Shown here one piece after another: positions 4,451 through 24,791 of a stretch of 64,000 bases of DNA. The notes under the pieces are model-generated. The model did not search any database. It saw only the letters and a program-made list of their open reading frames with translations, and was not told the origin of the DNA. Position 1 is the first letter of the stretch; the number at the start of each line of letters is the position of its first letter. The translations under genes and the position numbers were made by a program. The stretch lies in IMG/VR virus record IMGVR_UViG_3300033562_002694. One strand, written 5' to 3'. The DNA comes from a virus.

Positions 4451-5493
4451 AAAATACAATTCCAAAAAAATTAGCACTTATTCATCATATTGATAATGAT
4501 GGATTAATGTCAGGATATTTATTATCTCTGTATTATCAACAAGAAATTCAAAAAGGTTCAGCTGTTTTAATTCCATATAATTATACAGTTTATGAATCTT
4601 GGATGATTGATGATTCTTTTACAGAATATGTTTTTGTTGATATTACACCGCCTTTGGATTGGATAAAATCAAGAAAAAAAGAAATTCTTAAAGGAAAAAT
4701 TAATGTAAGTATTTACGATCATCATTTGGCCAAATATCAAGAAATTGAAAAATTGTTGTTATCAAAAGGTTGGGAAAAACTAAACAGTTTTGTTTTCAAA
4801 TACATATTTGATGAAACAAAATCAGGTTGTAAAATACTTGCTTTGTCGCTTGGGTTCAAAAATGTAAATGGCTTTTCTTTTGAAGAACAGGAAAACATTG
4901 AAAAATTAAAATTGTTAATCGATATAATTTCCGATTATGATACATGGGTTTTTACTTCGAATGAATATGTAGGTCGAAAGTTTAATGAAAATGATACATA
5001 TATGGGAATTGTAAAAGATGATATTCTTGCAATCAATACACATATGATGGATTTTAAAGATTTGACAAGTTTTTCAAAATTGATTAATTCAATAATTGAC
5101 AAATCTTTTTTTCAAAATGCAATATTTGAATTGATTTACGAAGGAAAACAAAAAATTAATCAAATCATAATTGAAAACGAAGCAAAAATTCGAAAAGGAT
5201 ATTATTCGCAAGAAAAGAAAATATTTATTTTTGAAGGTTATCCAAATTATTGGATTAGAAAACAAATTGAATCAAAATATCCTAATTGTATTTATTGGAT
5301 TGGTTATATAATCGATTTAGCAAAACCTCTAATCAAATTTAGTATTCGTAGTGAAAAAGCAAATGATTGTGTTGAAATTGCAAAATTTTTTGATGTAAAC
5401 GGTGGTGGACATTCAAAAGCAAGCAGTTTTACTTTGTCATTGTCTAATGGATTTAATTTTTTGTGTTGTCCCGAAATTTTTTTCAAAGTATAA
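4447..5493 (+). CDS. DHH/DHHA1-family phosphoesterase
   Basis: HHIDNDG, FVDI, YDHH, DYDTW, FSIRS and GGGH motifs. Confidence 0.85.
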   Translation: MKNTIPKKLALIHHIDNDGLMSGYLLSLYYQQEIQKGSAVLIPYNYTVYESWMIDDSFTEYVFVDITPPLDWIKSRKKEILKGKINVSIYDHHLAKYQEIEKLLLSKGWEKLNSFVFKYIFDETKSGCKILALSLGFKNVNGFSFEEQENIEKLKLLIDIISDYDTWVFTSNEYVGRKFNENDTYMGIVKDDILAINTHMMDFKDLTSFSKLINSIIDKSFFQNAIFELIYEGKQKINQIIIENEAKIRKGYYSQEKKIFIFEGYPNYWIRKQIESKYPNCIYWIGYIIDLAKPLIKFSIRSEKANDCVEIAKFFDVNGGGHSKASSFTLSLSNGFNFLCCPEIFFKV

Positions 5494-12364: not shown

Positions 12365-12392
12365 CCTATAACGATTTTAAATAATGGATATA
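12365..12392 (+). promoter_or_regulatory. Phage bipartite promoter-like motif
   Basis: CCTATA-N15-GGATATA. Confidence 0.7.
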
Positions 12393-14535: not shown

Positions 14536-14563
14536 CCTATATTATGTTTTTTAAAAGGATATA
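14536..14563 (+). promoter_or_regulatory. Phage bipartite promoter-like motif
   Basis: CCTATA-N15-GGATATA. Confidence 0.7.
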
Positions 14564-14614
14564 TATTATGTGAGTAACATATTAATATGGATATTCAAAT
14601 TAAAAACAAAAATC

Positions 14615-14905
14615 ATGAGTGAACAAAAGATTGAATTAGATTTATCTGCTATTGATTGGAATAAATTATCTATTGCAGATTTCATTCTTTTGGAAAAAGA
14701 TTTGCAAAACAAACATACTTTGATTAAAGCTTCTCAACCAAAAGAAAGAAAATTAATTGGATTTGATTTAATTAAAGTTAAAGGAAAAGTTTATCGGGTT
14801 AAAAAAACAACAATTGACCGTTTGAAAAAAATGAAATCTGATAAATCAAGAGAAAAATTGATTGAAGAAATCATATCAACTCATAACCCTATTGAAACTT
14901 TGTAA
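14615..14905 (+). CDS. Hypothetical basic protein (weak similarity to C-terminus of 14970 and 23398 proteins)
   Basis: Start re-assigned to ATG 14615 because the upstream ATG falls immediately after the promoter motif. Confidence 0.65.
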   Translation: MSEQKIELDLSAIDWNKLSIADFILLEKDLQNKHTLIKASQPKERKLIGFDLIKVKGKVYRVKKTTIDRLKKMKSDKSREKLIEEIISTHNPIETL

Positions 14906-14969
14906 GAAAATTTTAATACCTCAAATAATTATCAATTATTAATTTCAATTACTTTTAAAACAATTTATT

Positions 14970-15533
14970 ATGTCAAAAGAAAAAAATGAACTGACCGAAG
15001 GTCTTGAAGAATCAACATTAAGCGAAGTTACTGAAACAACTGAAACCGCTCAGGAATCAAAACGTAAAGTACAAACTCCTGAAGAACGTGAAACACTTGT
15101 AGCCGGTGCTGAACAATTGAGATCAATTGGTATTTCAGACCGTTTAAGCAAAGTATTGGTACTTGCTGTTGATTGGAACACTCCAAAGGAAACTGTTCAG
15201 CCTGCAAAAGAAGCTCTTATTAAAGAGTTTGGAACATCTGATGCTCTGAAGGATTACGTTGATACCGATTTCCAGAAAGAATTACAACCATTTGCTGGTA
15301 TTGCAAAACTTCTCCCTGTTTTGAATAACATTAAATCTTTTTACGCTCGTCGTGAAAATACCAGTGTTTCAAAGAAGGTTAAATATGTTCAGGCCTCTAT
15401 TTCCGGAACCATTTACAATGTCAATGCCGCTTATATGGCTGAAATTGCAAATCTGCCGAATGCTGAAAAGAAACAACTTCTTCTTGCTCACCCTGATACC
15501 AATTCGGTTGAAGTAATTGAAGAAATTCTTTAA
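14970..15533 (+). CDS. Hypothetical protein, paralog of 23398..24075
   Basis: Acidic N-terminus, shared C-terminal pattern ending IEEIL; codon usage resembles the capsid gene. Confidence 0.8.
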   Translation: MSKEKNELTEGLEESTLSEVTETTETAQESKRKVQTPEERETLVAGAEQLRSIGISDRLSKVLVLAVDWNTPKETVQPAKEALIKEFGTSDALKDYVDTDFQKELQPFAGIAKLLPVLNNIKSFYARRENTSVSKKVKYVQASISGTIYNVNAAYMAEIANLPNAEKKQLLLAHPDTNSVEVIEEIL

Positions 15534-21753: not shown

Positions 21754-21779
21754 ACAAAACTGAGCAGAAAAAATAAAAA

Positions 21780-21827
21780 TTCAGTCCCAAAACGATATTT
21801 TTTACCGTTTTGGGACTGAATTTTTTT
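21780..21827 (+). terminator. Terminator hairpin before repeat cluster A
   Basis: ttcagtcccaaaacg...cgttttgggactgaa plus T7. Confidence 0.75.
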
Positions 21828-21841
21828 CAAATTTCACTTTT

Positions 21842-22226
21842 ACGCACCAGTAAAATCATCCAATATGTTTGATATATTTGTTTTATAAGGCATATGTCTT
21901 GTCAATTATCGAATATTAATGTTTTACAGGTGCGTTATGACCCTCTGTCGGAGCTTTACGCACCTGTAAAATCATCCCATATGCTTGATATATTTGTTTT
22001 ATAAGGCATATGACTTGACAATTGACGAATGAAAAAGTTTTACTGGTGCGTATTGATAACGTAAGTGATTGGTATTTAGATAGTTATGAAAATTTTATCA
22101 TAACGCACCAGTATGTTAACATATAACAACAATACGCACCAGTAAAAAAGCCTACATACTCTCTTAAATCGGAATGTCAAGACATATGTCTTATCGATTC
22201 GATAATGTTTAAATATACTGGTGCGT
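21842..22226. repeat. Repeat cluster A: three 93-94 bp inverted-repeat units
   Basis: Units 21842-21935, 21958-22051, 22134-22226 bounded by ACGCACC(A/T)GT...AC(A/T)GGTGCGT with internal AAG(A/G)CATATG(T/A)CTT; solo box at 22103. Confidence 0.9.
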
Positions 22227-22293
22227 CAAATTGAAATGACAAAAAAAAAAATCCAAACCAAAATGGTTTGGATTTTTAAGCGTACCAGCAAGA

Positions 22294-22698
22294 TTACTTA
22301 CTTACTTTGGTGTAAATTATGTCCTTAACATTGACATCAATCGGCGCACCGGCGAAGTATTTTGCCAACTGCAGAGTGAAGTCTTTTGGTGAATTGGATT
22401 CAATGGTTGTCAACAGTCGGTAATTGGTCTTGGTTGTGCTGGTGCGGGAAACTTCCTGTGTGCCATTAAATTGGGTATTGAACACTTCAGGGGTTACAAT
22501 TTTGCCGTCCATTTTCAAAACAACAACATTTGTTTTTGTAACATGCACAATGTTCGTGCGGGAAGCTTTATTTGATTTTGAATGTCTCCGCTTACGTTTT
22601 GCAGGTGCGAGGACTCCCATTACTGATTCAATTGACTGTACTTCTGTTGCAGGAACTTCGATCGAAGCTACAACTGCTGTTTTAGCATTTTTTGTCAT
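22294..22698 (-). CDS. Hypothetical protein with basic patch (PAKRKRRHSKSNK)
   Basis: 134-aa ORF with its own promoter motif and terminator. Confidence 0.75.
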   Translation of the reverse strand: MTKNAKTAVVASIEVPATEVQSIESVMGVLAPAKRKRRHSKSNKASRTNIVHVTKTNVVVLKMDGKIVTPEVFNTQFNGTQEVSRTSTTKTNYRLLTTIESNSPKDFTLQLAKYFAGAPIDVNVKDIIYTKVSK

Positions 22699-22761
22699 TG
22701 TTTGAATTGTTTGTTAATTTGTTAGTTTGTTTGTTGTCAGAATGTTGTTCCTGATGTTATA

Positions 22762-22789
22762 TATATCCACTTACTGGAATTAATATAGG
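22762..22789 (-). promoter_or_regulatory. Phage bipartite promoter-like motif (leftward)
   Basis: CCTATA-N15-GGATATA on the minus strand. Confidence 0.75.
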
Positions 22790-22814
22790 CAAATTCGAAA
22801 ATATTTTGAAAATA

Positions 22815-23263
22815 ACGTACCGGTAACATATTATAGTCTTATTTGAGCGTACCAGTAAAGTTATATGCGCACCGGTAAATATAAGTTATATACTTGATAT
22901 TTTAGTCTTGTCAAGACATTATGTTTGTATATTAAAAATATAAAAGGCAAATCCTGGTGCGTATTGTCTTGTTTTACTAACATTAAAGCGCACCAGTGAA
23001 TTTAATTGACAAATCAATGGTATATTGACATATTGGTATATTACTAATCAAATAAGGTATATAAATCATTACTGGTGCGTTAAGTCTTTATATATCAATT
23101 CTATATAATAATGATATAAAAATCCAGTTACATTAAAGCGCACCAGTAATATATTGATATACATCAATACGCACCGGTAATATCTATTCATATTTCTTAT
23201 ATATTATCATAACCTTAGCATATGCCTTAACATTTAGATATTTTATGTTGTTTACTGGTGCGT
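22815..23263. repeat. Repeat cluster B: three 93-96 bp inverted-repeat units
   Basis: Units 22867-22962, 22988-23080, 23169-23263; solo boxes at 22815, 22847, 23138. Confidence 0.88.
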
Positions 23264-23297
23264 TAACTCAAATCTTTTAAAAATAGTTTCCAATTAA

Positions 23298-23325
23298 CCT
23301 ATATATATTTTTAAAAGTGGATATA
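23298..23325 (+). promoter_or_regulatory. Phage bipartite promoter-like motif (rightward)
   Basis: CCTATA-N15-GGATATA. Confidence 0.75.
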
Positions 23326-23397
23326 TATAACATCAGGAACAACATACTTCTTGAGAACAAAACAATATTAATAATTTTAAAAAAACAAACAAACAAA

Positions 23398-24075
23398 ATG
23401 GGAAAAAACAAAGAGAATGTAAAAGGTACGGAACAGGAAAGTCTTGAAATGTCTGAAGGACAGGAAAGTACTGAAACTGGAACAGAAACCCAATTGGGTG
23501 ATGATCTGGAAACTTCCGAAGACGAAAGTGCCCCGGCGGTAATTTTACCGAAATATTCCGACAAAACTTACTTGGAAAGTCAGGAAGCAGAATTTCCTTC
23601 CGATTTGACAAGCAAAAAATTTGACGCCGAACGCGAACCAAAAGTTCAAAGTGGTCTTAAATCAATCGCAGAATTGATGCCTGAAAAAATTAATCCGCTT
23701 GTGCTTTTGCTTGGAAAATGGTGGGAAAACAAAGCAGCTCGTTCAGTTATAAAAGACATGATTGATGCTGAAGCAACTTCCAAAGGAATTGCATCTGACG
23801 TGTACCTCCAAGTTGAACTTCGCAAGAATGTTGACACTTTGTCGACTATCCAGCAGGCTGTTGATCGCATGAAATATGCAATCACTTACTTCAAACCCCG
23901 TGGCGGAATAAGCACAAAGGAAATTTACAAAGTGATGACTATCGACGGCAAAATGTTCAATGTGCCTATGTCAATCCTTGAATCAGCAAAATTGCAGTTT
24001 GGAGACAACAAAGTTGAACTTAAGGCTTTTGTAATTGCACATTCAACTGCAATGGAAATTGAGGAAATTCTCTAA
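23398..24075 (+). CDS. Hypothetical protein, paralog of 14970..15533
   Basis: Start re-assigned to ATG 23398 (the ORF-track start lies inside the promoter); acidic N-terminus, ends MEIEEIL. Confidence 0.8.
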   Translation: MGKNKENVKGTEQESLEMSEGQESTETGTETQLGDDLETSEDESAPAVILPKYSDKTYLESQEAEFPSDLTSKKFDAEREPKVQSGLKSIAELMPEKINPLVLLLGKWWENKAARSVIKDMIDAEATSKGIASDVYLQVELRKNVDTLSTIQQAVDRMKYAITYFKPRGGISTKEIYKVMTIDGKMFNVPMSILESAKLQFGDNKVELKAFVIAHSTAMEIEEIL

Positions 24076-24091
24076 CCTTCACCGGTACGCT

Positions 24092-24125
24092 AAAAATCCG
24101 GTCCATTTTGGACTGGATTTTTTTT
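24092..24125 (+). terminator. Terminator hairpin
   Basis: aaaaatccggtcc-atttt-ggactggattttt plus T-run. Confidence 0.75.
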
Positions 24126-24141
24126 GTCTTATTTCAATTTG

Positions 24142-24520
24142 ACGCACCAGAGATTTCTTCAATTAAATTCAAATTCAAATTAAACAAGACATATGTCTTA
24201 ACAAAGTGATATTTCAGTGTTTTTACTGGTGCGTCGATATATCCCTTTTCATTTCAAACTTGATTTATCTGATATTTCATTTTAACGCACCTGCAATATA
24301 CTCTATTACATCAATACGCACCGGTAAAAAGTCTTCAATTTTGTCTTTTATCAAGTATACAAGACATATGCCTTATATAACTTGAAAATATCTTTTATTT
24401 CTGGTGCGTAGTCTTCACATAGACCTTACGCACCAGTATTTTTCATATTATATTCAATATTTATTTTTAATAAGACAAGTGTCTTGATTATTTCGAAAAT
24501 ATCACCAATCACCGGTGCGT
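24142..24520. repeat. Repeat cluster C: three 93-94 bp inverted-repeat units
   Basis: Units 24142-24234, 24316-24409, 24428-24520; solo box at 24285. Confidence 0.9.
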
Positions 24521-24543: not shown

Positions 24544-24570
24544 CCTATATTTTACGGTAAAAGTGGATAT
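24544..24570 (+). promoter_or_regulatory. Phage bipartite promoter-like motif
   Basis: CCTATA-N14-GGATATA. Confidence 0.65.
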
Positions 24571-24611
24571 ATATATTAAGAGTAAAATAATTTAATCTAA
24601 AATTTTCGATC

Positions 24612-24791
24612 ATGACAGAAAAAGAAAGTATTGCACGTAAAATTGTTGCCGATACAATTATGCACCATACTGTTCACAGTCAACTTGTGCGTGAAATTGG
24701 TAATGCTTTGAACAAAGGACATTTGAACACTTCATTTGATGAAGTTATCGAAATAGTTAAGAAAATTTCTGAACAACTCGCAAAAGGATAA
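24612..24791 (+). CDS. Small hypothetical protein (59 aa, not in ORF track)
   Basis: Manual translation MTEKESIARKIVADTIMHH... Confidence 0.55.
   Translation: MTEKESIARKIVADTIMHHTVHSQLVREIGNALNKGHLNTSFDEVIEIVKKISEQLAKG

Follow-up and report, generated by a model that had tools for sequence, protein, structure and literature searches.

Here we describe a repeated DNA element in a 64,000-nucleotide stretch (the window) of the virus record IMGVR_UViG_3300033562_002694 in IMG/VR. Nine units of about 94 bp, arranged in three arrays (A, B and C), lie between positions 21842 and 24520, and each is framed by two convergent copies of a short box. Our analysis suggests that the boxes are probably the assembly site of a sequence-specific protein, which would wrap or loop each 83-bp segment between them and may also place a dimer on a central palindrome. 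A wrapping protein is the best explanation because the boxes are invariant and asymmetric, their spacings are whole helical turns to within ±1 bp, the interiors carry a bendability code locked to the boxes, and a central dyad is present. We further propose, with about even confidence, that the arrays are wrapped nucleoprotein modules controlling one class of phage promoters, termed class 2 below.

We scanned the window with the 10-bp box pattern RCGCACCDGT and with its 9-bp core, CGCACCNGT. The 10-bp pattern gave 17 exact matches, all inside 21842-24520, where 0.01 would be expected by chance, and none of 100 shuffled sequences reached 17. With up to one mismatch, the core gave 31 matches. Of these, 27 fell within 21843-24519, in agreement with the roughly 25 boxes counted in an earlier reading of the letters without database searches (the sequence-only reading). 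The other four match the chance level of 4.2 for the whole window, and exact matches to the 10-bp pattern are confined to this locus; that reading, too, had noticed no box elsewhere in the window. All nine units that it proposed were recovered at their starts (Table 1), each 93-96 bp long and consisting of a box, 74 intervening bases and an inverted box, and the three solo boxes that it placed 31 bp before a unit were each found at exactly that distance from the left box. Last-base deviants among the outer boxes are the right box of B1, the left box of C1 and the right box of C2. In addition, we found CGTACC-type boxes, absent from the earlier account, at 22281, 22816, 22848 and 24081.

The palindrome that had been reported in eight units is a near-central AAG-N8-CTT. 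It matches AAGACATATGTCTT with at most two mismatches in six units, with no equally good match outside the arrays in the window; it is weaker in B1 and B3, and B2 lacks it. Its centre lies about 50 bp from the start of the left box and about 40 bp from the end of the right box, which is 5 bp, or half a helical turn, off the unit centre. This offset has the same direction throughout the window, and the units therefore share one orientation. Units A1 and A2 are close in sequence, and A2 is probably a recent tandem duplicate of A1.

The same architecture was found in ten further AT-rich phage contigs of 53-177 kb, showing that the spacing is kept in relatives. These were collected by an exact-pattern scan of viral contigs, a protein-guided search and degenerate pattern scans. 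The first two approaches led to two IMG/VR phages, 68 and 88 kb long, that carry these boxes. We also fetched the DNA around four homologs of P0002, the protein encoded between arrays B and C (contigs of 53, 60, 66 and 177 kb), and found that arrays flank the gene on both sides in all four. Chance matches in G+C-rich DNA made up most of the output of degenerate unit-pattern scans of genome, metagenome and viral collections. When the matches listed were filtered for A+T-rich multi-box loci, three metagenome fragments and a 161-kb viral contig were recovered, all four with a P0002 homolog beside the units. In total, eleven independent contigs carry arrays and all eleven carry the P0002 gene, with linked proteins that are only 45-70% identical. 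Neither the locus, in a distant DNA search, nor P0002, by tblastn, matched any of 50,697 deposited phage genomes, and no phage isolate in this collection carries the P0002 gene.

The rules of the architecture were derived from 54 units in seven phages. The convergent boxes are 82 bp apart, start to start, in 19 units, 83 bp in 19, 84 bp in 13 and 85-86 bp in three, so that 51 of the 54 fall within 82-84 bp. A solo box on the same strand precedes the left box by exactly 31 bp in 18 cases and by 27-32 bp in five more. The box consensus is W-W-W-R-CGCACC-(A/G/T)-GT-AAA-W, with an occasional T at the third core position; the 13-bp form is ACGCACCNGTAAA, and nine bases per box are invariant. In the relatives as in the window, the first unit of an array starts about 15 nt past the T-run of a terminator, and the spacer from the first unit to the solo box is variable and very A+T-rich (60-94 bp by box coordinates). 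Units abut without open reading frames (ORFs) between them, and their orientation is uniform in nearly all arrays. In the relative L005 the leftmost array is inverted as a block, with the palindrome offset mirrored and the solo boxes on the opposite strand, which indicates that orientation is a property of the module and not of the genome. Each genome has a single array locus, in which the arrays, from 3 to about 6 in number among the relatives, span 3-6 successive intergenic regions, with two or three units per region, and each has a terminator on one side and a promoter on the other. Immediately beyond the boxes a GTCTT half-site is modestly enriched (6% vs 1.6%), but it is not a general feature.

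We found that the interiors of the units are nearly free in sequence. Between phages their identity is 37%, compared with 33% expected from composition; within a phage it averages 41%, with a few recent duplicates that reach 100%. The earlier view that the intervening sequence varies while lengths are conserved thus stands as to identity and spacing, but not as to the interior as a whole, which carries an approximately 10-bp G/C rhythm in register with the box. Computed per sequence, the G/C indicator has its highest spectral power at 9.75-10 bp (z=17 vs shuffles), where it reaches three times the power of 1,543 control windows taken at these loci (Mann-Whitney p=2e-18). The signal is equally strong when the central 19 bp containing the palindrome are masked, and every one of the seven phages shows it. 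Relative to the box, the phase of the signal is fixed (R=0.83, Rayleigh p~6e-17): positions at about 9-13, 20-23, 29-32, 49-51, 60-62, 69-71 and 78-81 from the box are pure A/T, and G/C-containing positions lie between them. The periodicity of AA/TT dinucleotides is weak (z up to 3.5), and the clear signal is the placement of G/C. Because G/C and A/T alternate every ~10 bp in box register, the DNA would bend preferentially in one direction, and the pattern is the one expected of DNA that curves the same way along its whole length, as on a protein surface. Since 83 bp corresponds to eight turns and 31 bp to three, all boxes would lie on one face of the helix.

A bipartite promoter motif, CYTATA-N15-GGATATA, occurs in two forms. 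Class 1, GGATATA(T/A)AA, is often preceded by TCTGAA-GCC (window positions 12386, 20414 and 31175). Class 2, GGATATATAT..., is often preceded by TTTTGCCC (22768, 23319 and 24565) and stands before the P0002 gene, the divergent gene for a small basic protein and the next small operons. The existence of two forms hints at two temporal or regulatory classes. Across the eleven loci, a box was present 45-88 bp upstream of GGATATA in 20 of 30 class-2 promoters and in none of 12 class-1 promoters; most of the ten class-2 promoters without a box either follow another promoter in tandem or stand at the edge of a locus. Relative to the class-2 promoter, the nearest box never changes orientation. The distances between the two cluster at 45, 54-58 and 63-67 bp, about one helical turn apart (R=0.67, p~1e-4); because some of the positions counted for phase and for promoters are homologous between related phages, these counts are not wholly independent of one another. 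The 177-kb relative shows this arrangement of box and promoter too, with GTATATATATAACAT as its -10-like element. We favour regulation of class-2 promoters because the proximal box is fixed in orientation and phase, the association is exclusive to one promoter subclass, and the modules are distributed over several promoter-upstream regions.

Two side observations concern transcription in the relatives. In L005, at 4465-4580 on the minus strand, a class-2 promoter between two units is followed about 70-100 nt on by a strong terminator, and the transcript is a candidate small RNA or micro-ORF. In the assembly L006 of the 177-kb relative, positions 1-788 hold a full sigma-70-family gene (regions 1.2, 2, 3 and 4 by Pfam) about 3 kb from the arrays, whose product is a candidate reader of the phage promoters.

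The mechanism that we propose involves a DNA-binding protein, probably phage-encoded, that would bend or wrap the DNA of each unit. The two 13-bp boxes, converging 83 ± 1 bp apart, or eight turns, would present themselves on the same helix face, and the DNA between them is free in sequence and fixed in length. The near-central palindrome would be the dyad site for a dimer. As about 80 bp make one tight superhelical turn, two box-bound subunits could meet across this distance, and the third box, three turns upstream, would extend the complex. Such complexes would be cis-regulatory assemblies that activate or switch class-2 promoters. In the p4/p6 switch of phage phi29, inverted-repeat sites lie between divergent promoters, and DNA bending by a regulator together with an architectural protein yields a compact complex that switches the promoters. 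The arrays here may resemble that switch in having multiple sites between divergent promoters. However, the motifs, spacings, proteins and lineage are unrelated, and the phi29 sites are few and do not form repeated 94-bp units.

Several findings weigh against this proposal, in addition to the partial dependence of the promoter counts given above. In the window, array A is enclosed by two convergent terminators and no promoter follows it, and the unit orientation of array B does not follow the nearest promoter. The G/C periodicity demonstrates anisotropic bendability, not binding itself. A search of sequencing runs returned DNA runs of one microbial-mat study only and no RNA run containing this DNA. 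Furthermore, the binding protein is represented by a candidate only. P0002, the sole universally linked gene product, is acidic, with a net charge of -12 (tail -11, core +1), and has no recognisable fold. It has no Pfam or PHROG family and no sequence relative in PDB profiles, and fold searches with Foldseek (PDB, AlphaFold-DB clusters and BFVD), a wide VIA-align search (best Z 4.8) and the ESM Atlas found no match. Its C-terminal domain, folded alone, gave a best Z of 2.9 and no match to a family or to a solved or predicted structure.

A bolder extension of the wrapping model, which we offer tentatively, is that each 94-bp unit is a positioned nucleosome-like particle, in which a new phage protein would recognise the boxes and the dyad and wrap one turn of ~83 bp. 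The arrays would then form a short tract of "phage chromatin", programmed by its sequence, that acts as a hub of transcription control or as the start of replication in a widespread, uncultured Bacteroidota-type phage lineage, and the wrapping protein might be the P0002 family together with the small basic product of the divergent gene. In nucleosome-positioning DNA and at strong gyrase sites, A/T and G/C alternate with a periodicity of ~10 bp over ~80 bp, a length equal to one superhelical turn. The arrays may be likened to these in that A/T-only and G/C-containing positions alternate every ~10 bp. They differ in that the code is framed by invariant boxes of 9-13 bp and belongs to a phage of bacteria, with no link to a histone-like protein or to gyrase apparent.

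Among the rival explanations, a replication origin or a centromere-like partition locus, with iteron- or parS-like boxes and P0002 as the initiator or segregation protein, is the most probable but still unlikely. In F sopC, P1 parS, R1 parC and the lambda ori iterons, short specific sites at whole-turn spacing are wrapped or bent by a dedicated protein; sopC consists of 43-bp repeats that each contain a short inverted repeat, and P1 parS has boxes on both arms of an IHF bend. P1 RepA/incA and F sopC provide the model of a protein gene flanked by its own sites. The arrays may be compared with these as whole-turn arrays of sites that flank the gene or promoter of the system. They share with an origin or partition site the single locus per genome, the one gene always embedded between arrays, the phasing of the DNA for wrapping and the very AT-rich spacers between the first unit and the solo box, and the nearby strong promoters could activate an origin. 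However, the units are far longer than the known repeats, and the specific sites are convergent pairs 83 bp apart with a central dyad, not direct iterons of 17-22 bp. P0002 has no initiator, winged-helix, AAA+ or ParB-like family or fold. No ParA, ParB, ParR-type or Rep family was found in the Pfam listings for the ±5 kb around the locus in five relatives, which also hold no initiator or terminase, and no ParA/ParB/ParR-type family was found among ten window ORFs scanned. The cumulative GC skew, a check that the sequence-only reading had proposed, turns at about 28 kb, where gene orientation switches, and not at the arrays. Boxes hold a fixed phase and orientation relative to promoters, and the arrays are spread over 3-6 intergenic regions upstream of unrelated small operons, which fits promoter-associated modules better than a single origin. 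The sequence-only reading had ranked a helically phased, protein-wrapping array first. Its wrapping part gains strong support from the spacing in the ten other contigs and from the box-locked G/C rhythm; the origin, centromere or T5-like injection-stop functions that it attached to such an array do not.

The closest described elements are the promoter-early stem-loop (PeSL) cassettes of T4-type phages, which consist of a sigma70-type promoter and a hairpin with a G/C stem and are scattered through hyperplastic regions (PMC2839356, PMC4122927). The arrays resemble them as repeated composite elements between genes that combine a terminator stem-loop with a strong promoter whose upstream part is AT-rich. 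In both cases the elements border small orphan genes of a T4-like genome, differ in number between relatives and bear signs of duplication or recombination. Terminators and promoters that together make such a composite frame the arrays of the window (Table 1). We considered that the units are PeSL-like mobile regulatory cassettes, whose repeats serve as homology patches (terminator, repeat and promoter) for shuffling small ORFs with no dedicated wrapping protein. The terminator-array-promoter composites around small orphan genes, the difference in copy number among relatives, the recent duplicates within a phage and the distant T4-likeness of the phage all agree with this, but the explanation is improbable. 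Homology leaves unexplained the nine invariant box bases within chance-level sequence, the ±1-bp length rule, the 31-bp solo box and the box-locked 10-bp G/C code kept across phages. PeSLs also lack 94-bp units, invariant convergent boxes, the 83- and 31-bp spacing rules and a phased interior. Moreover, the promoter here, CYTATA-N15-GGATATATAT, is bipartite and not a sigma70 consensus, and the box-bearing cassettes are confined to one locus. Searching the literature for the box sequence brought up primer matches only, all of them unrelated, and the earlier statement that no described phage system has this architecture stands as far as checked.

A DNA-entry or packaging signal (injection-stop, pause or pac-like), at which a virion or host protein would grip the wrapped DNA, appears quite improbable. 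It would suit a single, highly structured locus with bent DNA, and one assembly of the 177-kb relative (L007) breaks about 150 bp before the array. However, the other assembly of the same phage (L006) has the locus mid-contig, so the break more likely arose from the repeats. The portal and other head genes found in the window do not adjoin the array locus, and nothing ties it to genome termini.

It is highly improbable that the units are expressed or extruded as hairpins, whether as ~94-nt RNAs, cruciforms, attC-like single-strand recombination sites or miniature inverted-repeat transposable elements (MITEs): together with TAAA/TTTA, the convergent boxes could make a 13-bp stem, with a second hairpin possible at the central palindrome, and the boxes resemble terminal inverted repeats, but partner boxes match each other at variable positions no better than re-paired boxes of the same phage (permutation, all P>0.05), and complementarity beyond the box and TAAA is at chance. 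Of the options that the sequence-only reading had listed second and third, cassette recombination sites found no support and processed hairpin RNAs are disfavoured; descent from a MITE or insertion sequence is likewise disfavoured. No Rfam family matched, a permissive threshold giving sub-threshold chance matches only, and the arrays sit between terminators and promoters. None of the 54 units has a flanking duplication of at least 4 bp; the interiors are unconserved, the copies are not dispersed and none occurs elsewhere in the 64 kb. The Pfam listings for the neighbourhoods in five relatives contain no integrase, recombinase or transposase. The lack of covariation, Rfam matches and duplications, together with the restriction of the box to this locus in the window, indicates that the boxes act as independent copies of a protein recognition site.

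The window, whose DNA stems from a microbial-mat metagenome, is A+T-rich (about 27% G+C) and encodes ribonucleotide reductase, NAD-ligase, helicase, DNA polymerase and portal. By portal protein, its nearest isolates are the T4-like Sphingomonas phage PAU and Tenacibaculum phage PTm1, at 26-29% identity. No Shine-Dalgarno sequence precedes the start codons in the array region and one relative carries a gene with a type-9-secretion sorting domain, which suggests a host among the Bacteroidota. The three arrays occupy three consecutive intergenic regions. Array A (21842-22226) is flanked by terminators on both sides. Array B (22867-23263, together with the CGTACC-type boxes 22816 and 22848) separates the divergent promoters of P0001 and P0002, and array C (24142-24520) lies between the P0002 terminator and the promoter of the next small operon. 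The promoters and leaders of P0001 and P0002 form a 74-nt inverted (mirror) repeat of 82% identity, with GTGGATATATATAACATCAGGAACAACAT on both sides. The 177-kb relative shows the same mirrored promoter/leader design in its own sequence (L006 4490-4550 / 4925-4990).

Table 1. Positions of the arrays, genes and transcription signals in the array region of the window.
Feature	Position	Strand	Remarks
Intrinsic terminator of the upstream plus-strand operon	21775..21825	+	23-nt arms, 96% complementary; array A begins ~15 nt past the T-run
Unit A1	21842..21935	+	left box 21842-21851, palindrome 21887-21900, right (inverted) box 21926-21935
Unit A2	21958..22051	+	86% identical to A1; palindrome 22003-22016
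Solo box	22103..22112	+	31 bp upstream of the left box of A3
Unit A3	22134..22226	+	perfect palindrome 22179-22192
Terminator hairpin downstream of P0001	22247..22277	-	
Gene P0001	22294..22698	-	134 aa; basic KRKRRH patch
P0001 promoter and 5' leader	22739..22812	-	GTGGATATATATA at 22758-22770, minus strand
Two degenerate CGTACC-type solo boxes	22815..22856	+	at 22816 and 22848; the former 56 bp upstream of GGATATA of the minus-strand promoter
Unit B1	22867..22962	+	right box ends in G; weak palindrome
Unit B2	22988..23080	+	no clear central palindrome
Solo box	23138..23147	+	31 bp upstream of B3
Unit B3	23169..23263	+	right box 65 bp upstream of GGATATA of the P0002 promoter
P0002 promoter and 5' leader	23275..23348	+	CCTATA-N15-GGATATATATA at 23298-23329
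Gene P0002	23398..24075	+	225 aa
Terminator hairpin after P0002	24092..24122	+	array C begins ~16 nt past the T-run
Unit C1	24142..24234	+	perfect palindrome 24186-24199
Solo box, final C	24285..24294	+	ends in C instead of T; 31 bp upstream of C2
Unit C2	24316..24409	+	palindrome 24361-24374
Unit C3	24428..24520	+	palindrome variant 24472-24485; right box 54 bp upstream of the next GGATATA
Class-2 promoter of the small-gene operon starting at 24612	24544..24575	+	

P0002 is the only gene that stands beside the arrays in every array-bearing contig examined. As the only gene whose presence follows the arrays, it is the first candidate partner of the DNA modules; its sequence and model show no sign of DNA binding. 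All of its 42 homologs come from metagenomes, and none has a functional name. In the structural model, a disordered N-terminus, which is acidic, precedes a helical core and a small C-terminal domain of a beta-hairpin and two helices, with a predicted local distance difference test score (pLDDT) above 90 over most of residues 50-225. Within the N-terminus (window 23398-23550), which is otherwise unconserved, the motif (E)GLE(S/D) is kept in nearly all of 23 aligned homologs. A likeness of the C-terminal domain to DNA-binding domains of the Bro-N/Rha/KilA-N type was considered, found no support and was dropped. This domain of ~45 residues (IDGxxYNV...L..AK..F) recurs weakly in the window ORFs 14555-14902 and 14943-15530 (E 4e-3 and 5e-4) and as a tandem pair in the divergent gene of two relatives (L005 4826-5311 and L008 3851-4342, both minus strand; E 7e-14 and 9e-13). 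It forms a small phage-specific domain family.

P0001, the product of the divergent gene, has no Pfam, PHROG or fold match; homologs lie at the same position in L009 and L006. In the seven phages the divergent gene varies, being P0001-like with KRKRRH in three, of the tandem-domain type in two, a DUF6011 gene in one and absent in one. The P0001 coding sequence itself holds three one-mismatch boxes, at 22345-22353 (plus), 22438-22446 (minus) and 22601-22609 (minus), which is more than chance for 400 bp, and two of them converge 93 bp apart.

Other repeats came to light in the course of the searches. In the 177-kb relative, tandem repeats of ~22 bp (GGGCCTTTTTGAAGCCTTTTCA-like) bracket the cassette of arrays and P0002 (L006 3440-3630 and 6160-6300). 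A candidate relative from a metagenome, L161 (ERZ767114 NODE-2982, 53% G+C), was rejected as an unrelated palindrome array that shares no proteins with the phage. Its non-coding tract of ~750 bp (1660-2370) contains about 20 copies of the 16-bp palindrome ATCGCACCGGTGCGAT, many of them 33 bp apart, with the half-site CGCACC as in the phage box, and the flanking ORFs have no Pfam match. The box-rich locus of another candidate, L312, proved to be a coding Ala-Pro-Val repeat.

Sequence-specific sites that frame 83 bp of DNA, free in sequence, fixed in length and coded for bending, are a rare and clean natural example of DNA designed for wrapping. We regard the arrays as phased protein-binding arrays that would form a wrapped regulatory complex, and there is a real chance that their protein partner is of a new type. 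The module is small enough to be synthesized, which makes a direct in vitro test possible. If the interpretation is true, it would provide a new toolkit for bending DNA and a marker by which regulatory hubs could be annotated in phage genomes from metagenomes. The persistence of this element across phages of 53-177 kb, together with a linked protein that is an orphan in fold, points to an undescribed DNA-organising protein and to a new layer of promoter (or origin) control in these phages.

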